DNA of 52,336 bases, taken from NCBI GenBank assembly GCA_964576115.1, contig CAZNUA010000023.1, forward strand, positions 1-52,336. The letters run 5' to 3'. The position numbers were made by a program, and so were the translations under genes. The notes below the pieces were generated by a model, which saw only the letters and a list, made by a program, of their open reading frames with translations, was not told the DNA's origin and did no database searches. Every line of letters starts with the position of its first letter. The stretch's first letter is position 1. This document shows, in pieces, positions 11,760 to 49,944 of this stretch. The stretch comes from an uncultured Gemmatimonadota bacterium (GTDB taxonomy: Bacteria > Blakebacterota > Blakebacteria > Blakebacterales > Blakebacteraceae).

Positions 11760-13568
11760 TCACCTGCTCGGAGGGTGCAGAAGCACGGAGTTTGTCGTCC
11801 GGGCTATCCAGATCAGGGCGTCATATTCCTGACAGAGAACAACGGGGTAGAACGGATTATCGATTGCTGCTGATCCGATAGAACGGAAGAGCCGCCGGGA
11901 GTGTAACCAACCCGAGGTAGTGGAACTGGCCTCGATGATATGAAGATCCAAGATGAACCGAGGCAACCCGGTTCGCTGAAAAACCAGTTCGACACTCCCC
12001 GATGCCGGAGGTCCAGCCGTATAGGTGGCCAGTCCATTCGGTCCCACCGCCGTATAGTCACCGGTCTCGAAACAAAATCCCATCGAGTAATAATCCTCAT
12101 CATGCCTCTGGGCCAAGTAGCCTCCCATGGACGGCAACTGTTCGTGTATGTGCCCATTGTGAGCCCATAGGACAATCCTGGTACCGGGCGGGTGGTGAGC
12201 CAGTATCCAGTCTACATTATCGGCCATGCTCCGATCGCGATGCCGGGGCTCAGCACTCTGCCGGATGACTTGCGCCTTTTGAATGCCCCAATTCACATCC
12301 TTGCTATCGTGCTGGCGGCAATACCGTTCGCGATTCTCTTCCAGATGGGCCAGGACATCTTCTGTCAGCCTGATGTACCGCTCTTCGTCCTCGTCTGAGA
12401 GAACGCGTTGCCCTCTTTGCAGTGTATTCCGGTAGATCTCGGCCACTTCTCCATATTTCTCTTCGGCTGTGACCGCGTAATCGGGATCAACTTTAGTGAG
12501 AAACTGGTTCACTTCCGTTATGGTCACTAGCGGGGCCTGCATGTCGAAACCCCAGAATTCCATCCTCCCTCTGCCAGAGGCATTGAATTCTCTCATCCAT
12601 TCGATCATGTCGAGTACTTCCCGGGTATTCCAGGTCCAGAAGTAGATATCATCCAGACCCTTGCGCGGATCGCCCGTTCCGGTCAGGACATACCGATTCA
12701 GAGCTTCACATTCAGGCATGTTCGCTTCGATGGCAAAGACAGTGAAACCCATTTCTTCCGCCAGAAACTCCACCAGGCGGTGTTTCATGCGGAAGAACTC
12801 ACTGGTGCCATGAGTACCCTCACCCAAAGCAACGATGCCGGCATCTCCGATTATTTCCTCGAGAGGTTCCAGATCGGTAAAGCCGCTTCCGGCATCGGGG
12901 GTCACGAACGGGATGGCGTTATCCCGCACCCAGGCGATCTGTTCGACTGTCGGATCATCGAATTCGGCCCGTATCAATTCCTCCAGTGACACCCCATTGA
13001 CCGAAATACCCAGACTATCGAACCAGGCCGTGCCATCGCCTTCGAGATAACAGCCGAGGACCGCATATCCCGCCTCAGACGGGACGTCGAGTTCGACCGC
13101 ATAGTGATTCCAGTCCGTGGTACCCCGTGGGGCTCGCACCGGCATATCGTCGAAAGCAATTTGCTGACTGTCATTATCATCCACACGAAACCAGAGCCCG
13201 GCGAATCTCGATCTCACGTTATTAGTCCGGATATAACCGCTGAACCGCACCTTCGTGTCAGCCACGAGATTGATCGGAAGTTGAAGGAAGGTGGCACTGT
13301 GACCACCTGTGTCGATCCGGGCAATCCTCAGGCTGCGTCGTCCGGAATAGAACACATCCTCATCCAGGGCGACGTTGTTGTTCGACTGGATCAGACGCCA
13401 GACACGCGGCAGAGGCGGCTGCCCACCCCACGATTCTTCGAAATCGAGATTGAGTGAGGTCTGTGCTGAAAGTCGTGACGGGATCATAGTCAGCACGCAG
13501 AACAGGATCAGAACTCGGTTCGTACTATTCTGGAAAGCATGTCGGGTTCGGGTTCGCAGAATCATCAA
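11760..13568 (-). CDS. Erythromycin esterase (EreA/EreB-like) family protein with an N-terminal beta-sandwich domain
   Basis: ALGEGTHGTSEFF, FAIEAN, WGFDMQ, RDRSMADN, LWAHNGH motifs and a signal peptide. Confidence 0.88.
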   Translation of the reverse strand: MMILRTRTRHAFQNSTNRVLILFCVLTMIPSRLSAQTSLNLDFEESWGGQPPLPRVWRLIQSNNNVALDEDVFYSGRRSLRIARIDTGGHSATFLQLPINLVADTKVRFSGYIRTNNVRSRFAGLWFRVDDNDSQQIAFDDMPVRAPRGTTDWNHYAVELDVPSEAGYAVLGCYLEGDGTAWFDSLGISVNGVSLEELIRAEFDDPTVEQIAWVRDNAIPFVTPDAGSGFTDLEPLEEIIGDAGIVALGEGTHGTSEFFRMKHRLVEFLAEEMGFTVFAIEANMPECEALNRYVLTGTGDPRKGLDDIYFWTWNTREVLDMIEWMREFNASGRGRMEFWGFDMQAPLVTITEVNQFLTKVDPDYAVTAEEKYGEVAEIYRNTLQRGQRVLSDEDEERYIRLTEDVLAHLEENRERYCRQHDSKDVNWGIQKAQVIRQSAEPRHRDRSMADNVDWILAHHPPGTRIVLWAHNGHIHEQLPSMGGYLAQRHDEDYYSMGFCFETGDYTAVGPNGLATYTAGPPASGSVELVFQRTGLPRFILDLHIIEASSTTSGWLHSRRLFRSIGSAAIDNPFYPVVLCQEYDALIWIARTTNSVLLHPPSR

Positions 13569-20816: not shown

Positions 20817-23731
<2,915 letters not shown>

Positions 23732-32520: not shown

Positions 32521-33144
32521 ATGGACTACCTCAGCCTGTTGCGTAACAGCCACATCTTCGCGGCTGCGGTGCGCGAAGTGCTGGAAGAGAAGTTCCTGGA
32601 GGAAACCACTCCCTCCCCCCTCTCCCTATCCCAGTTTCATCTGCTCAAACTGCTCTCGATCCGGAGTTCCCACCATGTCAGGGAAGTCGCCGATTTCCTG
32701 GGCATGAGCACCGCCGCGGCCTCGAAAAATATCACCAAACTCGAAGGGCTCGGCCTGCTCGAGCGCAACCGTTCCGAAGGCGACCGGCGGGCGATGGAGC
32801 TCTCGATCACACCCAAGGGGCGGCGTACGGTACTGTCGTACGAGGAACTCAAGGCAGCCCGGCTCTATCCGCTGCTGAGCGAATTCAGCGAACCAGAGAT
32901 TGAAGAGTTCACCCGGCTCCTCGAACAGTTCTCGGTCCGGCTTTACGAGCTGGAACTGGAGAATGGCGGGGAACCGCAAAACGGTACCTGCCTGCGCTGC
33001 GCTGCGTACCTGGATAGTACCTGCCCGGTGGGAGATCTCCTGGGTGGGTGTCCGTATCAGAAAGTACTGCAGACCGGTCCTCCGGCCGCAAACCCCGGAA
33101 GGGCCGAAAACAGCCCGGGCCACATTGCGGACACTGTCACCTGA
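32521..33144 (+). CDS. MarR-family regulator with a C-terminal four-Cys motif
   Basis: LSLSQFHLL, VREVADFLGMSTAAASKNITKLEGLGLLER..DRR, then CLRC-x7-C-x8-CPY. Confidence 0.9.
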   Translation: MDYLSLLRNSHIFAAAVREVLEEKFLEETTPSPLSLSQFHLLKLLSIRSSHHVREVADFLGMSTAAASKNITKLEGLGLLERNRSEGDRRAMELSITPKGRRTVLSYEELKAARLYPLLSEFSEPEIEEFTRLLEQFSVRLYELELENGGEPQNGTCLRCAAYLDSTCPVGDLLGGCPYQKVLQTGPPAANPGRAENSPGHIADTVT

Positions 33145-33160
33145 TGACGGGAAGAGTCTG

Positions 33161-33517
33161 ATGAAGTACTGGCGTACACCTCTCGACCTCGACAAGGTCA
33201 CCATTCCGCACGGGGAAGTACTCATTATCGAAGACCGCTGCAAGGGGTGCGGCTTTTGTGTCGAGTACTGCCCCAAAGGGGTACTGGCCCTGTCGGAACG
33301 ATTCAATAAGAAGGGATATCACCCCCCGGAGGTCATCAAGACGGGTGAGTGCGTCAACTGCAACCTCTGCGAGATGATCTGCCCCGATTTCGCGATCTTC
33401 AGCCAGGCGCTGCCCGATCAGGTGGTTGCCGAGTTGCAGGACCAGATCGACGCCAGGGGGGGCGGAGAAAAGACCGAGGCAACGGCGGAGGAGAAGGAGG
33501 ATACCAGTGAAAGCTGA
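33161..33517 (+). CDS. korD: 2-oxoacid:ferredoxin oxidoreductase delta (ferredoxin) subunit
   Basis: CKGCGFCVEYCP, NKKGYHPP, CVNCNLCEMICPDFAI. Confidence 0.9.
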   Translation: MKYWRTPLDLDKVTIPHGEVLIIEDRCKGCGFCVEYCPKGVLALSERFNKKGYHPPEVIKTGECVNCNLCEMICPDFAIFSQALPDQVVAELQDQIDARGGGEKTEATAEEKEDTSES

Positions 33518-34667
33518 TCCCAAGGGCGTCCTGACGGGAGCGCATTACCTCGACGGCGACTTTGCCGCCGGCGAGGGAGCGATGGCGGCCGGCTGCCGTT
33601 TCGTGGCCGGATATCCCATCACTCCCTCGACCGAGGTGGTCGAGAGGATCTCGCGCCGCTTTCCCTTCATGGGCGGCACCTTCATCCAGATGGAAGACGA
33701 GCTGGGAAGCATGGCTGCCGTTGTCGGGGCTTCGTGGACCGGCACCAAATCGATGACGGTCACCAGCGGCCCGGGCTTCAGCCTGATGATGGAGAACCTC
33801 GGCCTGGCGGTGATGATGGAAACCCCCTGCGTGCTGGTCAACGTGCAGCGGGGCGGCCCCTCGACCGGCCTGCCCACCATGACGGGGCAGTCGGACATGA
33901 TGCAGGCCCGCTGGGGCTCGCACGGCGACTACGAGCTGATCGCCATGAGTCCCAAATCACCCCAGGAGGCGTTCGATATCATGATCGACGCCTTCAATAT
34001 AAGCGAGGTCTACCGGGTCCCGGTCCTGGTCATGATGGATGAATGCGTGGGACACATGACCGAAAAAGTCATCATCCCGCCGGCCGAGGAGATTGAACTC
34101 ATACCGCGCAAGCTCACCGAGAAGAAACCCGGGGAATACTGGCCTTATGAGGTCAGCAACGGCAGTCTGGTACCCGAATTCGCCCGGGTCGGCGACGGGT
34201 ATCGCTTTCACTCCACCGGACTGACCCACGACTACCGCGGTTACCCCATCATGAGCGCGGAGTGCCAGTGGGAGTGCGTGAGCCGGCTGGTCGACAAGAT
34301 CAAGAAGAACGCCGACGACATCGTCAAGTTCGAGGAAGAGGAGACCGACGGCGCCGACGTGGTGGTGCTCTCCTACGGCATCACTTCGCGGGTGGCCCGG
34401 ATGGGCATCGATATGGCGCGCAAGAAGGGCATCAAGGTCGGCGTGATCAGGCTGATCGTGGTCTGGCCCTTCCCCGAAAAACGGATTCGCGAACTGGCCC
34501 CGAAGATCAAGGGCTTCGTGGTCCCCGAAATCAATCTCGGTCAGGTATCGCTCGAGGTCGAGCGCTGCGTGGCGGGTAAATGCACGACCACCCTTGTACC
34601 CCACCCCGGCGGCGGCGTGCACGATCCCGAGGCAATCTTCGAAGCAATCGTGGGAGCGGCGAAATGA
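33507..34667 (+). CDS. korA: 2-oxoacid:ferredoxin oxidoreductase alpha subunit
   Basis: AGYPITPSTE, FIQMEDE, TSGPGFSLM, VQRGGPSTGLPT. GTG start after AAGGAGG. Confidence 0.95.
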   Translation: MKADPKGVLTGAHYLDGDFAAGEGAMAAGCRFVAGYPITPSTEVVERISRRFPFMGGTFIQMEDELGSMAAVVGASWTGTKSMTVTSGPGFSLMMENLGLAVMMETPCVLVNVQRGGPSTGLPTMTGQSDMMQARWGSHGDYELIAMSPKSPQEAFDIMIDAFNISEVYRVPVLVMMDECVGHMTEKVIIPPAEEIELIPRKLTEKKPGEYWPYEVSNGSLVPEFARVGDGYRFHSTGLTHDYRGYPIMSAECQWECVSRLVDKIKKNADDIVKFEEEETDGADVVVLSYGITSRVARMGIDMARKKGIKVGVIRLIVVWPFPEKRIRELAPKIKGFVVPEINLGQVSLEVERCVAGKCTTTLVPHPGGGVHDPEAIFEAIVGAAK

Positions 34668-35572
34668 GCGCACAGGCAACGACAGAGACCAAGCGGGAGG
34701 TCCGTCCCGAGGATCACCCGATCGCACCCTTCATCCGCATGGACCGGATGCCGCACATCTGGTGTCCCACCTGCGGGATCGGGACGGTCGTCAAATGCTA
34801 CGCGGCGGCCCTGGAAAAGCTCGAACTCGACTACTCCAAGGTGGTAGTGGTTTCGGGAATCGGCTGTACCGGCCGAGTGGCGGGCTACATGAACTTCGAT
34901 GCCTTCCATACCACCCATGGTCGGGCGATTCCCTTCGCCACGGGGCTGAAGATGGCCCGTCCCGAACTGAACATCACGGTTTTCAGCGGCGACGGCGACC
35001 TGTCGGGCATCGGGGGCAACCACTTCATCCACTCCGCCCGGCGGCACATGGACCTGCTGGTCATCCTGGTCAACAACTTCATCTATGCCATGACCGGCGG
35101 CCAGAACGCACCCACCACACCGATCGGCGCCAACTCCTCGACCATGCCCCACGGCAACTTCGACACCCCCTTCAACCTGCCCCATCTGGCGGCCAGCTGC
35201 GGCGCCAGCTACGTGGCCCGGTGGACCTCCCTGCACATCCGCCGGATGACCAACACCTTCGAGGAGGCGCTGCAGCGCAAGGGGTTCCGCTTCGTCGAGG
35301 TGGTCGCCCCCTGCTCCACCCTCTACGCCCGGCGGAACAAGCTGGGCACGGGGCTGAACCTGATGCAGTTCTATCACGACAATTCCGAGATCAGGCACGG
35401 TGAAGACACGCGCAATCTCGATATCGGTTATCAGGAGAAGATCATCTGCGGCAAGTTCGTCGATGACACCGAGCAGACCACCTTCATCGAGAATATGCAC
35501 GCCCACTATGAAAAACGCCTGGGCGAGGACTACGTCCCCATGGGCCCGGAGGGAGGCATGCTCCATGAGTAG
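34664..35572 (+). CDS. korB: 2-oxoacid:ferredoxin oxidoreductase beta (TPP-binding) subunit
   Basis: WCPTCG, SGIGC, HTTHGRA, GDGD...GGNH...NN, MTGGQ. Confidence 0.95.
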   Translation: MSAQATTETKREVRPEDHPIAPFIRMDRMPHIWCPTCGIGTVVKCYAAALEKLELDYSKVVVVSGIGCTGRVAGYMNFDAFHTTHGRAIPFATGLKMARPELNITVFSGDGDLSGIGGNHFIHSARRHMDLLVILVNNFIYAMTGGQNAPTTPIGANSSTMPHGNFDTPFNLPHLAASCGASYVARWTSLHIRRMTNTFEEALQRKGFRFVEVVAPCSTLYARRNKLGTGLNLMQFYHDNSEIRHGEDTRNLDIGYQEKIICGKFVDDTEQTTFIENMHAHYEKRLGEDYVPMGPEGGMLHE

Positions 35573-36197
35573 GAAAGAGATCCGCATCACCGGCTTCGGC
35601 GGTCAGGGAGTGGTGCTCTGCGGCCACATCATCGGTCACGCCTACTCGATCGACGCCGGGAACGAAGCCACCATGATTCAGAGTTTCGGCCCCGAGGCCC
35701 GCGGCTCGGCCTGTTCGACCTCGCTCGTGCTCGACGAGCAGGAGGTCCTCTATCCCTATCTCAAGGGGCTCGACATCCTGGTGGCGATGTCGCAGGACGG
35801 CTACGACAAGTACGTTGAGGACCTGGCTCCGGACGGCACCCAGATCTACGAGTCCGATCTGGTCGAACCCGTGGTCACGAAGGACCAGAAAGCCTTCGGT
35901 ATCCACTCCACCCGTATCGCCGAGGAGATCGGCCGGGTCATCGTGCAGAACATCGTCATGCTCGGTTTCTTCGCGGCGGTGACCCGAATGGTCTCGAAAG
36001 ACGAGTGGATCTCGGCCGTCACCGATTCGGTGCCGGCCGGGACCGAAGAACTCAACCTGAAAGCCTTCCACGCCGGCTGGGACTGGTACGAAGAAAAGTA
36101 CGGCGACGGGAAGGGGAGCGAACCTGAGGCCGCCGCCGACCAGGGCGGTGAGGCCGAAAAAGAAGCGAGCCCCGAGGAAACGGTCGCGGCCGAGTAG
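35565..36197 (+). CDS. korC: 2-oxoacid:ferredoxin oxidoreductase gamma subunit
   Basis: GFGGQGVV, SFGPEARGSAC, NIVMLG, NLKAF. Confidence 0.93.
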   Translation: MSRKEIRITGFGGQGVVLCGHIIGHAYSIDAGNEATMIQSFGPEARGSACSTSLVLDEQEVLYPYLKGLDILVAMSQDGYDKYVEDLAPDGTQIYESDLVEPVVTKDQKAFGIHSTRIAEEIGRVIVQNIVMLGFFAAVTRMVSKDEWISAVTDSVPAGTEELNLKAFHAGWDWYEEKYGDGKGSEPEAAADQGGEAEKEASPEETVAAE

Positions 36198-36252
36198 CCG
36201 GGAACGTTGCCTTACTGGAGGAACCCCACTCTGAGCAGTGAGGAGAGTGAGG

Positions 36253-39200
36253 ATGAGCGCAGAAGTCGCTGCGGCTGAGGAAGCTGAGGCGAGAGTCAGC
36301 CGGCGCGCAGTCGTGATCGGAGGCGGCATTGCAGGCATGCAGGCCGCCCTCGACCTGGCCAACGCCCGGATACCCGTCACGCTGGTGGAAGCGTCGCCGT
36401 CGCTGGGGGGCCGGATGGCCCAGCTCGACAAGACCTTCCCCACGATGGACTGCTCCATATGAATCCTCGGCCCTCTGGCCATGGATGTCGGTCGACATCC
36501 ACTCATCGAGGTCGTCACCAACGCCGAGGTCGTCGGCTGCGAGGGTGAACCGGGAGACTTCCGGATCACCGTCCATCAGCACCCGCGCTTCGTGAAGGAA
36601 GACGTCTGTGTGGCCTGCGGGCTCTGTGTCGAGACCTGCCCCCAGGTGGGCGGCAACGAGTTCGACATGGGCCTGAAAGCCCGCAAGGCGATCTACCGTC
36701 CCTTTCCGCAGTCGGTCCCGGCGGCATATGTGATCGATCCCTTCGCCTGTCTGAATTTCCTGCCGCACCTGGACGAGAAGCAGAAGAAGCGGCTCGAGAA
36801 AGTGCAGGCCGCCAAGGCGAAGAAACGTCCCGACGTCGCCCTGCCCCACCTGCCCTGCGGCCACTGCCAGGAAACCTGCGAGGTAGGCGCGATCGACTTC
36901 GACATGCTCCCGCGCGAGTGGGAGGTCGAGGCCGGCTCGGTTCTGGTCGCCATCGGCTTCCAGGAATTCGACGCCCGCAAGCTCGGCCAGTACGGCTACG
37001 GCCGGTTCCCGAACGTGATCACCAGTCTCGAACTGGAGCGTATGCTCAACGCCTCGGGGGTCACCCAGGGGCACATGGTGCGACCCTCCGATCTCGGCAC
37101 TCCGAAGCGAATCGTCTTCATCCAGTGCGTCGGCGCCCGCGGCGACGGCGGGCGGCCTTACTGCAGCCGCTTCTGCTGCATGAACGCGGTGAAGGATTCG
37201 ATGCTCATCCGTCAGCACGATCCCGAAGTCGAGGACATCACCATCCTCTACACCGACCTGCGCGCCTTCGGGAAAGGCTTCGACGACTTCGTCAAACGCA
37301 GTGTCGAGGAACAGAGTGCGGAGTACGTGCGCGGCCGTCCCGCCAAGATCGATCTCGATCCCGACGGCAAGACCCTCGTCGTCTACGTCGAAGATACGAT
37401 CGAGCACGAGCAGCGGCGGATCCCCGCCGATCTGGTCGTGCTGAGTGTGGCCGCCGCGCCCAACGACGGCGCTGTCGAGTTGGCGAAGACCCTCGAGATC
37501 GAAACCGACCAGTACGGCTTCATCACGCCCCGGGACCCGGCCGTGAGCAGTGTCGAGACCCGGCGCGACGGTGTGTACGTCTGCGGCTCGGCGATCGGGC
37601 CCCAGGTCATCCCCGACGCCGTAGCCCAGGCTTCGGCCGCCGCGGCCCGGGCCGAACTCTTCCTGCACGGTCACCGTATCGAGGAAGTGTCCGAACCGCC
37701 CGAACCCATGGACACCTCCGGTGCGCCCCGGATCGGGGTGCTGGTGTGCAGTTGCGGAGCCAACATCGGCGGCGTGCTCGATGTCGAGGCACTTGCCGAA
37801 TACGCCCGCTCCATCCCCGATGTAGTGGCCGCCGAAACCTCGATGTTCGCCTGTGCCGAGACCGGCCAGGACCAGGTTGTCGAGCTGATCAAAGAGAACG
37901 ACCTCAACCGTGTGATCGTGGCCTCCTGCACCCCGCGCACGCACGAACCGGTTTTCCGGGAGACCTGTGCCCGAATCGGTTTCAACCCCTACCTGCTCGA
38001 TATGGTGAACATCCGCGACCAGTGCTCGTGGGTGCATGCCAACGAGCCCGAGCTGGCCCAGGTCAAGGCAAAAGACCTGATCCGCATGAGCGTGGCCCGT
38101 ACGCGCAACCTCGAACCGCTCTTCGAGAGCGAGGTACCGATGACCCGTACCGCCCTGGTGCTGGGCGGCGGCATCGCCGGCATCCAGGCCGCCACCGGTT
38201 TGGCCGAACAGGGCTTCGAGACCATCCTGGTCGAGAAGGAGGAGGCCCTCGGCGGGCGCCTGCGCGACCCGAACCTGCATTACCTCTACCCCACCATGCG
38301 GCCCGCCGCCGACGTGCTGAAGACGAACATCGCCCGGCTGAAAAAGAGCGGTGCCCGCATCCTGACCGGTACCGAGGTGGAGAGCATCGATGGTTTTGTC
38401 GGCAATTTCGACATCACTCTGACCGGAGCTGTTTCCGAGGAGGTAAAGGTCGGGGCCATCATCCTGGCCTTCGGCGCCTCCCTGCACGATCCGGGCGAGG
38501 AGTTCGGGTACGACCGTCGTGAGAACGTGATCACGAGCGAAGAACTCGAGACGATCTTCTGCGAGAACGACGACCAGGTGCTGATCGGGGGCCGCAAACC
38601 CGAGAGTGCGTCCTTCATTCTCTGTGTCGGGTCGCGCGAAGAGCACGGTTTCACGGGCTGTTCGCGCTACTGCTGTCCGACCGCCATCAAGCAGGCCCTG
38701 ATCCTGAACGAACAGGGCATCAACACCACCATCTTCTACCGCGACATCAGGACCGTTTCGGCCGGAGCCGAGGAGATGTACCGCAAGGCCCGCGGCCAGG
38801 GGGTACTCTTCATCCGTATCCCCCCCGGCGAGAAACCCGAGATTCTCGGCAACGAACGGGCCGAGGGATTGCGCTGTTACGATGAGCTGCTCGGACAGAA
38901 GCTCGAGGTACCGACCGACCTGGTGATCCTGAGTGTCGGCATGCGGCCGCGCCAGCCCGAGACCGAAAAATTTCACCTCATGCTCAAGGCCAGTATCGGT
39001 CTCGACGGTTTCTTCCTGGAGCGGCATCCCGAGCTCGGCCCGGTGGAAACGGTCGTGGAAGGAGTCTTCCTGGCCGGCACCATTCAGGGCCCCAAGGACA
39101 TCGTCGACTCGGTCGCCCAGGCCTCGGCCGCGGCCGCCAAAGCGGCAGTTCTGCTGTCTTTCGACAGCGTGCGCGTCGAGCCGACCGTTTCGGTCGTGGA

Positions 39201-39432
39201 TGAGGAACGCTGCCGGGGCTGCGGGACCTGCGTGGATATCTGTCCCTTCTCCGCCGCCGCGCTGGTCGAGATCGACGAGGGCGCCCATGTGGCCCGGATC
39301 AACGCTTCGCTCTGCAAGGGGTGCGGTACCTGTGCCGCCTGGTGTCCGTCAGGCGCTATCGCCGCCAAACATTTCACCGACCGTCAGGTCATGTCGATGA
39401 TCGATGCGGCGCTCGCGAAGGAGGCGCCATGA
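36253..39432 (+). CDS. hdrA: Heterodisulfide reductase subunit A-like protein, two-module, selenoprotein (Sec at TGA 36460-36462)
   Basis: ORFs 36238-36462 and 36481-39432 are in one frame: GGGIAG...LDKTFPTMDCSI*ILGPLAMDVGRHP. Also has CSRFCC, CSCGANI, SCTPRTHEP, a second GGGIAG and a C-terminal ferredoxin. Confidence 0.93.
36482..36501 (+). promoter_or_regulatory. Bacterial SECIS-like hairpin of hdrA1
   Basis: TGGATGTC-GGTC-GACATCCA. 27 nt lie between the UGA and the loop. Confidence 0.8.
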
Positions 39433-40064
39433 CCGCGCAGGCGAAGAAGAAGACATCCGCGAAGAAAAAGGCGGGCAACACGAAAACCGCGGCGAAGAAA
39501 ACGGCTGCAAAGAAGAAAACCGCGGCGAAGAAAACGGCTGCAAAAAAGAAAACTGCAACGAAGAAGACCGCGGCAAAAAAGACGGCTGTGAAAAAGAAGG
39601 CCGCCGCGGTCGCCGCCGAGCCGACCGCTGCCGCCCCTGACGGAAAATGGAATCCCGATATCGTGGTCTTCGCCTGCAACTGGTGCTCGTATGCCGGTGC
39701 CGACACGGCCGGGGTATCGCGTCTGCAGCACGAACCGCACTTCCGGATGATCCGGGTCATGTGCTCGGGCCGGGTGCATCCCGGATTCGTGATGCGGGCC
39801 TTCGAGAAGGGAGCCGATGGCGTGCTCGTCTCGGGCTGCCACATCGGCGACTGCCACTATGTCTCGGGGAATGAACGCCAGATCGAGATCTTCGAGATCA
39901 CCAAGCAGCTCACCCACCTGATCGGACTCGAACCGGGGCGGGTGCGGCTGGAGTGGGTCAGTGCCGCCGAGGGGCCCCGCTGGGCCGCTTTGATCAACGA
40001 ATTCACCGACCAGATCCGCAGGCTGGGCCCGAGCCCGCTCAAGGATCAACCGACGGCACGATGA
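39429..40064 (+). CDS. mvhD: MvhD/FlpD [2Fe-2S] subunit with a Lys/Ala-rich N-terminal extension
   Basis: [44 protein letters not shown]. Confidence 0.93.
   Translation: MTAQAKKKTSAKKKAGNTKTAAKKTAAKKKTAAKKTAAKKKTATKKTAAKKTAVKKKAAAVAAEPTAAAPDGKWNPDIVVFACNWCSYAGADTAGVSRLQHEPHFRMIRVMCSGRVHPGFVMRAFEKGADGVLVSGCHIGDCHYVSGNERQIEIFEITKQLTHLIGLEPGRVRLEWVSAAEGPRWAALINEFTDQIRRLGPSPLKDQPTAR
39483..39581 (+). repeat. 33-nt tandem repeat, about 3 copies, encoding KTAAKKTAAKK
   Basis: AAAACCGCGGCGAAGAAAACGGCTGCAAAGAAG, then a 1-mismatch copy, then a degenerate copy. Confidence 0.85.
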
Positions 40065-40080
40065 GGGAGAGTACGGCACG

Positions 40081-41229
40081 ATGGTCGACCTGACTGACGT
40101 CACGCGCAGATCGAAGGCCTGGGCCTGCTACGATTGCGGCAAGTGCACCGCCACCTGCCCTATCGCCCGTGTCGGCGGCTCGTACAGTCCGCGCCGGCAC
40201 ATTCTCTCCAGCAACACCGGCAATCCCGCCTTCATCCTGGAGCAGGAAACGCTTTTCGCCTGCCTGACCTGCAGCCTGTGCGAACAGCGCTGCCCCGCCC
40301 AGGTGCATTACACCGACCTGGTCAAGTACCTGCGCGAGATGGCCTGGGAAGAGGGAATCGAACCCGACTGCCCGCACGGCGGCACGATCCAGTCCCTGAT
40401 CCGGATGATGGCTCAGGGCGGTACGCAGCAGAACCGCCTGGAATGGCTGACCGAAGACCTGAAGACCAGCCCCGACGAAGGCGAGGTCTTCTTCTGGACC
40501 GGCTGCACGATGTACTACGACGCCATCTTTGCCGAATACGAGGGGGCCCACCCCCTCGAAGGCACCCGCGCCGCGGTCCGCCTGCTCAACGCCCTGGACG
40601 TCACTCCGGTCGTGAGCCCACAGGAGCGCTGCTGCGGCCACGATCTGCTCTGGAACGGCGACCGGGAAAACTTCGAGAAACTCGCCCGGCACAACGTCAA
40701 ACTGGTTCAGGATTCCGGGGCTTCGATCCTGGTCACCTCCTGCGCTGAATGCCTGCGGACCTGGAAGCTCGATTACGAACCGTACTTCGAGGGATCGATG
40801 CCCGAGATCGTCCATATCTCCGAGTATGTCGCCCGGCATCTGCCCGAGCTCGAACTCACAGGCAACGGCGGCCTGACCGTCACCTACCAGGATCCCTGCC
40901 GGCTCGGCCGCCAGCTGGGGATCTACGACGCCCCCCGCGAGGTCATGCAGGCCGTACCCGGCCTGGAGCTGGTCGAAATGCGGCACAACCGGACCGGTGC
41001 GACCTGCTGCGCCGGCGGGACCTGGTCGAACTGCGACATCTACGCCAAGAAGATCCAGGTAACCCGGCTGACCGAAGCGCGGGCCACCGGGGCCCAGGTC
41101 ATGGTCACGGCCTGTCCGAAGTGTCAGATCCACTTCAGCTGTGCCATGAAGGATCCGATCGAGAAGGAGAACATCACCATCGAGATGCGCGACGTGGCCG
41201 AGATTCTGCTCGACGCGCTCTCGACGTAA
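40081..41229 (+). CDS. HdrD/GlpC-like Fe-S protein (2x[4Fe-4S] plus two CCG domains)
   Basis: [48 protein letters not shown]. Confidence 0.9.
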
Positions 41230-41267
41230 CAAACAACAAAGACCGTTTCCGGGAAGGAAAGGGACTG

Positions 41268-43772
41268 ATGCAAGCAGACACGTCAACAGGCGAAGAGCTC
41301 CGGATCGGCGTCTTCATCTGCGACTGCGGCCTGAATATCGCAGGTGCAGTGGACACCGCCGCCGTGACGGAATACGCCGAGACGCTGCCCGATGTGGCGT
41401 GCGCAATACGCAATAAATACACCTGCGCCGACCCCGGTCAGAACGAGATCAAGAGGGCCGTTCAGGAGTACAAGCTCAACCGCGTGGTCGTTGCCTCCTG
41501 CACCCCGCGCCAGCACGAGCCGACCTTCCGGCAGTGCGTCTCCGAGGTGGGGCTGAACCCCTACCTCATGGAGATGGCCAACCTGCGCGAGCACTGCTCC
41601 TGGGTCCACCCCAACGACCGCGAAGGCGCCACCGCCAAGGCCAAGGACCTGGTCGCCGGTGCTGTGGCCCGGGCCCGTTTCCTGAAGAGCCAGGATGAGC
41701 TGACGGTTCCGGTTTCGCAGCGCGCCCTGGTGATCGGCGGCGGCATCGCCGGGATCGAGGCGGCGATCGAACTGGCCGATGCGGGACACAAGGTCACCCT
41801 GGTCGAAAAAGCGCCCTCCATCGGTGGGATCATGGCTCAGCTCGACAAGACCTACCCCACCATGGACTGCTCTATATGAATTCTGGGCCCTAAGGCCATC
41901 GATGCCGGTCGGCATCCGAATATAGAGCTGCTCACCTACAGCGAGGTCGAAGCCGTCTCGGGCTACGTCGGCAACTTCGAGGTCACGATCCGCAAGAAGG
42001 CCCGCTATGTGGACCTCGAGACCTGCAACGCCTGTGCCGAGTGCGCCAATGTGTGCCCGCAGGTCGTGCCCGACGAGTACCAGGTGGGACTTTCGGCCCG
42101 CAAGGCGATCTACATCCCCTTCCCGCAGGCGGTACCCTGTGTCTATGTCCTCGACATGGAGAACTGCCTGGGCAACAACCCGATCGCGTGCGGCAAGTGT
42201 GCCGAGGTGTGCGAGCAGAACGCCATCAACTACGACGACGCCGACGAGCTGATCACCCGCGAAGTCGGAGCGGTCATCGTGGCCATCGGTCTGGATGTCT
42301 ACGATCCGACCGAGATGGACGAGTACGGTTACACCCGCTTCGAGAACGTGATCACCTCGATGGAGTTCGAACGCCTGATCTGCGCCGGGGGACCGACCGA
42401 GGGGCACTTCGTGCGCCCGAGCGACATGGACCACCCCAAGCGGATCGGTTTCATCCAGTGCGTCGGGTCGCGCAATCCGGCCATCGGGCGACCCTACTGC
42501 TCGAATATCTGCTGCATGAACACCGTCAAGGACACCCTCCTGCTGGCCGACCACTATCCCGATGTGGAGAACGTGGTCTTCTACCAGGATATCCGCGCCT
42601 TCGGCAAGTCGTTCGAGGACATGTTCCAGCGCTCGAAGGAATCAGGTACCCGCTACGTGCGGGGCCTGCCCGGCGACATCGAGGAGGATCCCGAAACCAA
42701 GAACCTCGTCATCACGGTCGAGAACACCACCTCGGGCCGGATCGAGAGGCACGAGCTGGACATGGTCGTGCTCTCGGTCGGGGTGGTTCCGCCCAAGGAT
42801 CTGAAGAAGATCTCGGGGCTCTTCACCCTCTCGAAGACCTCCGACGGGTTCTTCATGGAATCGCACCCGAAACTGAAACCGATCGACGCCCCCACCAAGG
42901 GGGTGTATTTCGCCGGTTTCTGCGAGGCCCCGAAGGACATCAAGGACTCGGTCTGCCAGGCCGGCGCCGCGGCCTCGAAGGTGGGAGCCCTGCTCAACGC
43001 CGGAGAGGTCCGCATCGAGGCCCTCACCAGCCACATCGACGAGGAACTCTGCACCGGTTGCGGTGTCTGTGCCTCGGTCTGTCCCTTCTCGGCGATCCGC
43101 TGGGAGAAGGGCCAGAAGGCCCATGTCATCGAAGCGATGTGCGCCGGCTGCGGGGCTTGCGGAGCGGCCTGCAACTTCGGCGCCATCGAGATGCGGCACT
43201 TCACCGACTCGCAGATGGTGGCCCAGATCCAGGCCGTGCTGGCAGACAAACCCGAGGAGAAGGTCTTCGTCTTCGCCTGCAACTGGTGTTCGTATGCCGG
43301 AGGCGACATGGCGGGGATCTCCCGTCTCCAGTATCCGACCTCGAACCGCGTCGTCAGAACCATGTGTTCGGCGCGGGTATCCGAAGAAATGGTTCTCGAA
43401 GCCTTCCGCAACGGGGCCGCGGTGGTGCTGGTCTCGGGCTGCCATTACGCCGACTGCCATTACATCAGCGCCAACCGCGAGACCGTCAAGCGGGTCCAGC
43501 GGCTCTGGAACAAGCTCGAGAAGGCCGGGGTGCGCCCCGAGCGGCTGCAGCTGGAGTGGATCAGCGCCGCCGAGGGCCAGAAGTTCGCCAAGGTGATGAG
43601 GCAGATGGAGGAGCTGCGCTCGACGGTCACGCTCGAAGAGGTCGAGTACGCCCGCGAGGCGCTCAAACCGAAGTCGAAGAAAGAGAAGAAGGCCAAGGCC
43701 GGGGAGGATGCCAAAGCCTCCGCAAAGACGGAAGAGACGGAGAAGGCGGAGACCGAAACGGTCTCGAACTGA
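41268..43772 (+). CDS. hdrA: HdrA-MvhD fusion, selenoprotein (Sec at TGA 41877-41879)
   Basis: [12 protein letters not shown]...GGGIAG...[35 protein letters not shown] continues in frame into ORF 42009-43772. Also CSNICC, a ferredoxin and a C-terminal FACNWCSY...GCHYADCHY. Confidence 0.93.
41901..41916 (+). promoter_or_regulatory. Bacterial SECIS-like hairpin of hdrA2
   Basis: GATGCC-GGTC-GGCATC. 27 nt lie between the UGA and the loop. Confidence 0.8.
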
Positions 43773-43980: not shown

Positions 43981-44487
43981 ATGGCCGCCGAGCAGAAGGA
44001 TAACGACGTCGTCAGGGTCGACTTCGCCTTCAAGCGGGAACTGGCCGAGAAGGTCGAGGGCAACCTGGCCAGCTTCTGCTACCAGTGCGGGGCCTGCGTC
44101 GGCGACTGCCCGGCAGCGACCTATACCGACGATTTCAATCCCCGCATGATCATGCTCAAAGTCCTCTACGGGCTGGGAGAGGAACTCATCGGCAGCGATT
44201 CCATCCTCTGGGAGTGCACCAACTGCTACAACTGTGCCGAGCGGTGTCCCCAGGAGGTCAAACCGGCCGAAGTGATCATCAGCATGAAGAACATGATGGC
44301 CGACCGCGGCATCTACCCCGAGGGGGTCGAGAAGGTCATCACCACCTTCGAGACCACCGGGCGCACTGTCCCGATGAGTTCGGCGATAGACAAGCAGCGG
44401 GCCAAGTTCGGCCTGCCGCCTCTCGAGCCCGTTCCGATGGACGAGATCAAAAAGCTCCTCGAGCCCTCCGGGAAAGGAGACGAGTAA
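43981..44487 (+). CDS. hdrC: Heterodisulfide reductase subunit C
   Basis: CYQCGACVGDCP, FNPR, LWECTNCYNCAERCPQ. Confidence 0.93.
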   Translation: MAAEQKDNDVVRVDFAFKRELAEKVEGNLASFCYQCGACVGDCPAATYTDDFNPRMIMLKVLYGLGEELIGSDSILWECTNCYNCAERCPQEVKPAEVIISMKNMMADRGIYPEGVEKVITTFETTGRTVPMSSAIDKQRAKFGLPPLEPVPMDEIKKLLEPSGKGDE

Positions 44488-45410
44488 TGGAACGGTTCGC
44501 CTTCTTCCCCGGCTGTCTGGTGCCCGCCCGCTATCCCGCCATGGAGTTCGCCATCCGCAAAACCCTGCCCAAACTGGGCATCGAGATCATCGATCTTGAG
44601 GGCACCTCCTGCTGTCCCGACCCGATCTACTTCAAATCCAAAGACAAGATCTCCTGGCTCTCGGTCGCGGCCCGCAACCTCTGCCTGGCCGAGGAACAGG
44701 GGGTGGACGTCTTCACCAACTGCTCGGGCTGTACCGCCACCCTGTCGGAAACCTGGCACCTGTTGCATGACCACGAGGACATCCGCGACAAGGTCAACGA
44801 ACGGCTGGCGAAGATCGGCAAGGAGTGGAAAGGCACCAGCAAGGTCCGCCACATCGCCACCCTGGTGCGCGATATCGCCGGCTACGAGGCGGTGCGCGAA
44901 ACGGTCGTGCGTCCTCTCGAGGGCCTGAAGGTGGCCATCCACTACGGCTGCCACCTGCTCAAGCCCAGCAAGATCATGAACGTGGACGATCCCAACGATC
45001 CGCAGATGCTCGAGGAACTGGTCAGAGCCCTGGGAGCCGAACCGGTGCGGCACAGCAAGTGGTACCTGTGCTGTGGCAAGGCCTGCCAGTTGAACGACGA
45101 TCTGCCCGACACCATGATGCGCGATCTGCTCACGACGGTGCGGGAAGAGGAAGCCGAGATCCTCTGCCTGATCTGCCCTACCTGTTTCAGCCAGTTCGAC
45201 TACGGTCAGCTCAAGGTCGCCCGGCGTTTCGAAGAGGACTTCCACATCCCGCCGATTTACTATTTCCAGCTCCTGGCCCTGGCGCAGGGCATCGAGTATG
45301 AAGATCTCGGGTTCGAGCGGCAGCGCTTCAAACCTGAATGCCTGCAGCGGTTCGAGATCACCGTGACCGAACCCGAATCCGAGCCCGAACCCGAGCCGGA
45401 GACGGCCTGA
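44487..45410 (+). CDS. hdrB: Heterodisulfide reductase subunit B
   Basis: FFPGC, SCCP, CSGC, HYGCH, LCCG, CPTC..QFD. TAATG overlap with hdrC. Confidence 0.93.
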   Translation: MERFAFFPGCLVPARYPAMEFAIRKTLPKLGIEIIDLEGTSCCPDPIYFKSKDKISWLSVAARNLCLAEEQGVDVFTNCSGCTATLSETWHLLHDHEDIRDKVNERLAKIGKEWKGTSKVRHIATLVRDIAGYEAVRETVVRPLEGLKVAIHYGCHLLKPSKIMNVDDPNDPQMLEELVRALGAEPVRHSKWYLCCGKACQLNDDLPDTMMRDLLTTVREEEAEILCLICPTCFSQFDYGQLKVARRFEEDFHIPPIYYFQLLALAQGIEYEDLGFERQRFKPECLQRFEITVTEPESEPEPEPETA

Positions 45411-49867: not shown

Positions 49868-49944
49868 TGGTCGGGGTGGCCGGATTTGAACCGGCGACCC
49901 CCGCGTCCCGAACGCGGTGCTCTACCGGACTGAGCCACACCCCG
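49868..49944 (-). tRNA. tRNA-Pro (anticodon CGG)
   Basis: CGGGGTGTGGCTCAGTCCGGTAGAGCACCGCGTTCGGGACGCGGGGGTCGCCGGTTCAAATCCGGCCACCCCGACCA, full cloverleaf with encoded CCA. Confidence 0.97.

Follow-up and report, generated by a model that had tools for sequence, protein, structure and literature searches.

Paired hdrA genes with a conserved in-frame UGA, very probably a selenocysteine codon, in an uncultured bacterium of the Blakebacterota

Introduction

HdrA proteins that carry selenocysteine (Sec) in a CxxU motif are known in both bacteria and archaea (PMC1794560, PMC2702500, PMC13188914). In this work, we describe two hdrA genes, hdrA1 and hdrA2, each with an in-frame UGA at this position, on a contig of 52,336 bases (CAZNUA010000023.1), the whole of which is referred to in the following as the window. 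The contig belongs to the genome of an uncultured bacterium placed in the phylum Blakebacterota of GTDB, a metagenome draft of 3.96 Mb in 144 contigs with 64% GC and an estimated completeness of 93.7%.

Zhang et al. in 2006 counted 16 bacterial Sec-HdrA proteins, of which seven were found in Syntrophobacter fumaroxidans and four in Syntrophus aciditrophicus, with others in Clostridia, and already described proteins in which two HdrAs are fused, as well as gene clusters that include frhD/mvhD and glpC-like genes (PMC1794560). Desulfobacterium autotrophicum has Sec-containing HdrA1/A2 and HdrL adjoining mvhD (PMC2702500), and a 2026 review enters HdrA (NF040770) as a CxxU selenoprotein family (PMC13188914). 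In the super-assembly of Methanococcus maripaludis, Sec197 is bonded to the neighboring Cys near the flavin adenine dinucleotide (FAD); the authors propose that it acts as a thiol–selenol relay from FAD to the distal clusters, while calling its role unresolved (PMC13518236). These sources bear out the earlier note on this DNA, according to which Sec is known at this HdrA position in Methanococcales and some anaerobic bacteria (PMC1794560, PMC13518236).

The locus described here resembles the Sec-HdrA systems of Deltaproteobacteria and Clostridia in having the UGA at the second Cys of CxxC, several Sec-hdrA copies in one genome, an hdrA–hdrA fusion, clustering with mvhD and hdrD/glpC-like genes, a putative Sec insertion sequence (SECIS) within the coding region, and selA, selB, selD and tRNA-Sec (PMC1794560, PMC2702500). 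Unlike those systems, it is hosted by an uncultured lineage whose GTDB phylum is represented here by 10 species genomes; its MvhD and HdrD-like proteins have Cys, whereas in Deltaproteobacteria and Clostridia they often contain Sec too; and the cluster holds a 2-oxoacid:ferredoxin oxidoreductase instead of hydrogenase or formate dehydrogenase genes. With the archaeal Sec-HdrA proteins (M. maripaludis, Sec197; Methanocaldococcus, Methanopyrus and Asgard archaea) it shares the position of the residue and the association with MvhD/VhuD and HdrBC (PMC13518236, PMC13188914). The domain order of hdrA2 is also that of the archaeal proteins, as described there. Unlike the archaeal systems, the hairpin here directly follows the UGA and a bacterial SelA is present; in archaea, the SECIS is located outside the coding sequence, in an untranslated region, and the route of Sec synthesis differs from the bacterial one. 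The substrate of methanogen HdrA is the heterodisulfide of coenzymes M and B (CoM-S-S-CoB), whereas in this bacterium a bifurcating role with some thiol/disulfide acceptor is a prediction from its genes. The product of hdrA2 further resembles the HdrA2 family (HdrA::MvhD fusions, NF040770), which it matches end to end above the cut-off, with hdrC and hdrB next downstream. The characterized HdrA2B2C2 comes from Methanosarcina acetivorans and is a Cys form, unlike the hdrA2 of the window, with its predicted Sec and its bacterial host.

Results

Both hdrA genes are open through an in-frame UGA

The earlier note had placed an in-frame TGA in each of the two hdrA genes and read both as sites of Sec insertion rather than as marks of pseudogenisation. 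The two codons are exactly where it put them (Table 1), and in each gene the frame is open through the TGA, with HdrA sequence continuing beyond it. Under translation table 11, hdrA1 is split at the TGA into open reading frames (ORFs) at 36238..36462 and 36481..39432, and hdrA2 likewise into ORFs at 40749..41879 and 42009..43772. When read through, hdrA1 gives TFPTMDCSI-U-ILGP around the site and hdrA2 gives C-S-I-U-I-L-G-P, aligned to the C-S-I-C of HdrA from M. thermolithotrophicus (5ODC_A). We consider it very likely that both TGAs are selenocysteine codons; judging from sequence, selenium would then be incorporated at both sites.

The hdrA2 product is colinear with the solved archaeal HdrA (5ODC_A residues 2–652, E = 3.3e-237), and its C-terminus matches MvhD (5ODC_D). 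It scores 1142 bits on the NF040770 model for HdrA2, above the cut-off of 1100, and covers positions 1–775 of 777. Pfam matches to Pyr_redox_2, FAD_oxidored, NAD_binding_8 and Fer4 predict the FAD-binding Rossmann fold and the iron–sulfur (Fe-S) domains of HdrA, namely an N-terminal Cys cluster and ferredoxin domains, one inserted and one C-terminal. The start of the table 11 ORF at 40749 was rejected for this gene, for which the earlier note gave no start, as its first ≈170 residues are Arg/Pro-rich, off-frame, and overlap the hdrD-like gene. The real start is the ATG at 41268, which is preceded by a purine-rich, Shine–Dalgarno-like stretch, and the ORF thus begins 519 bases early (40749–41267).

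The hdrA1 product is organized differently. It starts with an FAD domain that contains the Sec motif and an inserted ferredoxin domain. Next come the Fe-S domain that is N-terminal in HdrA and another FAD domain, and the protein ends in a 2x[4Fe-4S] ferredoxin domain. Two Rossmann/FAD regions and Fer4 are recognized by Pfam, and the protein matches hdrA2 piecewise, its matches falling on hdrA2 residues 136–306, 307–580, 10–243 and 333–662. There is no CxxC/U motif in the second FAD module. The protein is not a simple HdrA tandem: the first module lacks the N- and C-terminal Fe-S domains, while the second has both and lacks the inserted ferredoxin domain. In total, hdrA1 has one copy of every HdrA domain plus two FAD folds, and resembles a covalent, asymmetric HdrA dimer.

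The UGA is conserved in a clade of HdrA homologs

The alignment of U204 of hdrA2 with Cys197 of 5ODC_A is free of gaps. Three other hdrA paralogs in the same genome have Cys in this column, in the motifs DCAPC, DCSSC and DCCSC, and three HdrA-like modules of the genome lack the motif altogether. A motif scan of loci from kin genomes yielded 27 distinct sites, 23 of them with TGA (11 of the hdrA2 type and 12 of the hdrA1 type, including the two in the window). The remaining four, all in more distant homologs, have TGC or TGT. The column is thus occupied by Cys or by UGA, as the earlier note had expected of an alignment with HdrA homologs.

This survey was extended to a collection of species genomes, from which the best 80 of 568 confirmed relatives were kept, spanning roughly 66–87% protein identity and representing one clade, not all HdrA. 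TGA was present in the column in all 80 loci, 76 of them identified with a first pattern and four with a relaxed one. The records of these loci carry the labels of at least eight phyla, among them Gemmatimonadota, Planctomycetota, Acidobacteriota, Zixibacteria, Eisenbacteria and Ignavibacteria. An hdrA2 ortholog with exactly one TGA was found in nine of the 10 species genomes of the window's own GTDB phylum; the tenth genome is 83% complete. Chance is not the explanation for the paired TGAs, because TGA stands in the same column in every ortholog of the Sec clade that was examined.

In the GTDB set used, the phylum of the window consists of these 10 species genomes in three families. The phylum labels of the nearest public records conflict (Gemmatimonadota, Zixibacteria, Planctomycetota or simply "bacterium"), and the lineage seems to be poorly classified. 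In 71 of 79 homologs a rare Ile codon, ATA, stands just before the UGA; an A always comes just after it, and 89 of 89 sequences read TGAAT, which suggests that the codon context around the Sec codon is under selection.

A conserved hairpin follows the UGA

Both TGAs are followed, inside the coding sequence, by a hairpin whose GGUC loop occupies +31 to +34 from the U of the UGA. The consensus stem, GAUGYC/GRCAUC, has 6–8 base pairs, and the hairpin lies about 22–24 nucleotides (nt) after the UGA. As in bacterial SECIS elements, the hairpin lies shortly 3′ of the UGA and has a G in its apical loop. The SECIS of Escherichia coli fdhF is likewise a hairpin shortly past the UGA and inside the ORF, and its loop, which is contacted by SelB, we take to be identical to the GGUC tetraloop of the hdrA hairpins. 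Unlike the fdhF element, in which the loop is at about +22 to +25, the hdrA hairpins have the loop further downstream and no evident bulged U.

The hairpin is found in all TGA-bearing kin, and is absent from the four Cys-form homologs despite the similar residues encoded there. Among 89 distinct sequences, 90.7% of the helix cells are paired, compared with 20–59% when the 3′ partner is slid by 1–3 columns, and none of 500 shuffles equaled the observed pairing. Covariation is seen at the helix pair 29–36, which is C-G in 64 sequences, U-A in 17, U-G in six and other combinations in two (n = 89). At the codon level, Ala-GCC is coupled with Arg-CGG (62 sequences) and Val-GUC with Arg-CGA (17). 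Synonymous sites within the helix are frozen (Asp GAT in 80/80, Ala GCC in 60/60, Gly GGT in 78/80 and His CAT in 80/80), whereas outside it the mean synonymous entropy is 1.46 bits over 29 four- to six-fold codons. A smaller, first hairpin (GGCC-loop-GGCC) 9 nt past the UGA was not counted, since homologs with K-M encoded there do not keep it.

The genome encodes the machinery for Sec insertion

The earlier note had named selA, selB, selD and tRNA-Sec as genes to be sought in the genome, and all four are there. A 99-nt tRNA-Sec with anticodon UCA was detected by ARAGORN on contig C2 and matches the full length of Rfam model RF01852 at 66.2 bits, above the threshold of 47; the ARAGORN drawing gives it a discriminator G. 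On three other contigs, the NCBIfam models found selB (contig C44; 320 bits, cut-off 242), selA (contig C39; 479 bits, cut-off 268) and selD (contig C45; 330 bits, cut-off 125). The selD gene is a fusion (locus L127, 776–3070) in which a NifS-like class V aminotransferase domain that resembles cysteine desulfurase/selenocysteine lyase precedes SelD, and the N-terminal motif of SelD has Cys, not Sec.

Formate dehydrogenase is the usual bacterial selenoprotein. The NCBIfam models did not detect its alpha subunit in this genome of 93.7% completeness, where the best match reached 27.7 bits against a cut-off of 666, so that the commonest bacterial reason to retain Sec appears to be missing. Nor was dsrA found with the NCBIfam models in the same genome; a gene of the DsrC/TusE family is present on contig C13.

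A genome-wide scan for UGA followed by a hairpin was crude and unspecific, giving 192 matches that were mostly off-frame noise, of which only two beyond the hdrA pair looked real. These candidate selenoproteins are a secreted Thioredoxin_7-domain protein with the motif U-P-H-C (contig C58, about position 13111, locus L133) and an fn3–AhpC/TSA protein in which an 8-bp hairpin, again with the loop GGUC, comes after the UGA (z = −2.15; contig C40, about position 21084, locus L134). In the window, pairs of frames also abut at a TGA at about 8335 (−), 20016 (−) and 30660 (+). They were rejected as selenoproteins, as read-through would join unrelated adjacent genes: a GH3 glycosidase and a beta-propeller, DUF169 and DUF6599, and a porin and a protein of no assigned family.

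Other readings of the UGA codons

Among other explanations, the one that survives best, although we consider it very unlikely, is that the UGA is read through as Cys or Trp, either by a near-cognate tRNA or in a SelB-dependent manner, for instance with a Cys-charged tRNA of Sec-like shape. The residue inserted at the UGA was deduced here from sequence, tRNAs of Sec-like shape that insert Cys do exist, and the acceptor stem of the tRNA has mismatches in the ARAGORN drawing. Nevertheless, this tRNA matches the full Rfam tRNA-Sec model above the gathering threshold and has the G discriminator, and SelA and SelD, which are needed solely for making Sec, both score above their cut-offs. Moreover, TGC or TGT would suffice for Cys, as they do in the three Cys paralogs of the genome.

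If instead the TGAs were true stops, the genes would be either pseudogenes or pairs of separately translated N- and C-terminal pieces, consistent with the four ORFs obtained with table 11 and with the in-frame starts available downstream at ATG 36481 and GTG 42009. This possibility is effectively refuted by conservation and we give it next to no weight: TGA is retained at 23 of 23 kin sites of the Sec clade and in the whole set of 80 loci over its full range of identity, the flanking protein is intact with no further stops, and a dedicated RNA hairpin directly after the codon is under purifying selection. Furthermore, the split would divide the FAD domain between the two residues of a single redox motif. 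The conserved TGA, the hairpin and the Sec machinery all agree with Sec insertion as proposed in the earlier note.

Equally remote is an assembly or sequencing error in this metagenome draft of many contigs, or a genetic code in which TGA is reassigned throughout the genome (codes 4 or 25): both TGAs are present, as the earlier note had asked to see confirmed, in per-run assemblies of four public runs at a depth of about 30–46 with no variant letter, which excludes a low-coverage error, dozens of other assemblies have this codon as well, and TGA is not generally a sense codon, because both hdrA genes terminate with it and it is the commonest terminator of the window, used by 27 of 45 listed coding-like frames.

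Several points weigh against reading the two genes as a Sec-HdrA pair. The four runs may include the source sample, and do not give independent support; no RNA run is among the sequencing runs listed. The 80 loci were partly retrieved with a peptide seed adjacent to the site, DKTYPTMD. At the gathering thresholds, Rfam finds no SECIS family in the window, only a tRNA. The single-sequence fold energies of the two hairpins are unremarkable (z = −1.9 and −0.4), and because they are not significantly low the case for an RNA element was built on comparative data; there, true covariation is limited to the one helix pair, and the nucleotide conservation is partly forced by the conserved G-R-H-P residues that the hairpin encodes. 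With respect to hdrA1, the NF040770 score of 1034.5 bits is below the cut-off and comes from three stretches in rearranged order, for which reason the protein is HdrA-like rather than a canonical member of HdrA2. On the functional side, the link to the upstream oxidoreductase comes down to synteny, and neither dsrA nor formate dehydrogenase was found with the NCBIfam models to point to an acceptor of Sec-HdrA.

Predicted function of the Sec-HdrA pair

With both UGAs taken as Sec codons, the short GGUC-loop hairpin in the coding sequence would recruit SelB with Sec-tRNA(Sec), and decoding of the UGA would give a C-x-x-C motif, next to the HdrA flavin, in which Sec takes the place of the second Cys. 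Two products would be formed. One is a canonical HdrA fused to MvhD and encoded with hdrC and hdrB, predicted to form an HdrA2B2C2-type module; the other is the fused double-HdrA, whose gene is accompanied by an mvhD of its own and by the hdrD-like gene. From their sequences, both products are most likely Fe-S flavoproteins that carry out flavin-based electron bifurcation or confurcation; they would link reduced ferredoxin, plausibly supplied by the upstream 2-oxoacid:ferredoxin oxidoreductase, to a thiol/disulfide acceptor. By analogy with Sec197 of M. maripaludis, the C-x-x-U pair may serve as a selenenylsulfide relay near the FAD. The physiological partners and the substrate of both products are predictions as well. 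That ferredoxin is one redox partner of the Sec-HdrA unit is suggested by the oxidoreductase genes, which are conserved directly upstream of hdrA1.

A broader proposal, which we regard as rather doubtful, is that the Sec-HdrA pair is the core of a fixed unit of nine to ten genes (2-oxoacid:ferredoxin oxidoreductase, double-HdrA, MvhD, HdrD-like, HdrA2::MvhD, HdrC and HdrB) that is conserved in the phylum, horizontally spread, strictly dependent on selenium and linked to ferredoxin, a bifurcating unit acting on a non-methanogenic disulfide. Under this proposal, the HdrA2 part may be common to sediment bacteria of at least eight labeled phyla, and among the best 80 of 568 relatives, at 66–87% identity, it always has Sec and in no case Cys. 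The unit may also be the main reason for keeping the Sec machinery, since these are organisms without formate dehydrogenase, and the double-HdrA may replace the HdrA homodimer by a covalent, asymmetric equivalent in which one flavin site alone bears Sec.

Relation to published work and to gene calling

The hdrA pair with its in-frame UGAs is real but ordinary, as the Sec-HdrA family has been known for about twenty years, and several copies per genome and fusions were in print in 2006–2009. The novelty is modest and lies in the host lineage, the gene unit linked to an oxidoreductase, the exceptionless Sec in this HdrA2 clade and the sharp SECIS signature. A classical selenoprotein is thereby extended to a poorly known sediment phylum, one bacterial HdrA2 clade is seen to retain Sec across many phyla with no exception among the loci kept, and a compact, searchable SECIS signature, GAUGYC-GGUC-GRCAUC at 24 nt after the UGA, becomes available. 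Neither the new host nor the signature overturns current understanding. No report of Sec-HdrA in this lineage was found in the literature searched, although the supplementary taxon tables of PMC1794560, PMC13188914 and PMC8318568 could list such cases. The accessible part of PMC8318568 reports no Sec-HdrA for the Gemmatimonad phylum, and no literature linking Sulfomarinibacter with HdrA was found.

The earlier note had also predicted that standard gene callers would annotate four broken fragments. This is correct for a plain ORF caller, which would in addition attach the false extension of ≈170 residues to the N-terminal fragment of hdrA2. Sec-aware pipelines can recognize hdrA2, as it matches NF040770 above its cut-off and the 2026 review lists that model as the CxxU family (PMC13188914). 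If genes are called without regard to Sec, both of these central redox genes are broken up, into four pieces in all, of which one has a false N-terminus, and the metabolic reconstruction of the lineage would be distorted.

Neighboring genes

The gene order in the window is ferredoxin, 2-oxoacid:ferredoxin oxidoreductase alpha, beta and gamma, hdrA1, mvhD, hdrD-like, hdrA2::mvhD, hdrC, hdrB and a YggS-like gene (Table 1). This is the genomic association typical of HdrA, with MvhD fused to hdrA2, hdrC and hdrB directly downstream, and a separate mvhD and hdrD-like gene after hdrA1. The order from the oxidoreductase alpha, beta and gamma genes through hdrB is kept in kin genomes (loci L033, L034 and L036–L040), and the gamma gene is directly upstream of hdrA1 in all seven kin loci that extend far enough. 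A genome that is more distantly related (L041) has hdrC and hdrB upstream of hdrA1 instead.

Table 1. Coordinates in the window of the hdrA genes, their predicted Sec codons and hairpins, and the neighboring genes.
Feature	Position	Strand	Basis and remarks
2-oxoacid:ferredoxin oxidoreductase, four genes	32879..36197	+	Pfam POR_N, TPP_enzyme_C, POR, Fer4; starts approximate; adjoins hdrA1 upstream
Oxidoreductase subunits: delta/ferredoxin first, then alpha, beta, gamma	alpha 33426-34667; beta 34580-35572; gamma 35400-36197	+	starts approximate
hdrA1, fused double HdrA-like, 1059 aa, predicted Sec70	36253..39432	+	read-through translation; Pfam
UGA predicted to be read as Sec, U70 of hdrA1, motif C-S-I-U (CxxU)	36460..36462	+	read-through; homolog alignment
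SECIS-like hairpin of hdrA1, 8-bp stem, loop GGUC at +31 to +34 from U of UGA	36482..36501	+	fold, conservation, covariation
mvhD (FlpD domain)	39429..40064	+	Pfam FlpD 3.2e-50; NF045873 VhuD-like
hdrD-like (HdrC-type 2x[4Fe-4S] domain and two CCG domains, fused)	40081..41229	+	Pfam Fer4_8 and 2 CCG
hdrA2::mvhD fusion, 834 aa, predicted Sec204; canonical HdrA with C-terminal MvhD domain	41268..43772	+	5ODC_A/5ODC_D alignment; NF040770
UGA predicted to be read as Sec, U204 of hdrA2	41877..41879	+	aligns with Cys197 of M. thermolithotrophicus HdrA (5ODC_A)
SECIS-like hairpin of hdrA2, 6-bp stem GAUGCC/GGCAUC, loop GGUC	41901..41916	+	fold, conservation, covariation, synonymous-site suppression
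hdrC	43981..44487	+	TIGR03290 7.4e-31, below cut-off; Pfam Fer4_8
hdrB	44487..45410	+	TIGR03288 299 bits, below cut-off of 345; Pfam CCG x2

The oxidoreductase alpha subunit scores 550.9 bits on NF006412, above the cut-off of 411. The hdrD-like protein has NCBIfam matches to TfrB/GlpC/HdrC-like models, all below the cut-offs. The ATG of mvhD overlaps the hdrA1 stop (ATGA), and that of hdrB overlaps the hdrC stop (TAATG). None of mvhD, the hdrD-like gene, hdrC and hdrB contains an in-frame TGA, and the redox motif of MvhD has Cys, not Sec.

MvhD has an N-terminal tail of ≈70 residues that is Lys/Ala-rich and resembles histone H1 (window 39429–39650; the match to Pfam HC2 is below the cut-off), and a Lys/Glu-rich tail ends the hdrA2::mvhD product (window 43650–43769). 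Basic tails are unusual on Fe-S redox subunits. The tRNA that Rfam finds in the window is an ordinary one (RF00005, 68 bits), located at 49871–49944 (−) and unrelated to the hdrA genes.

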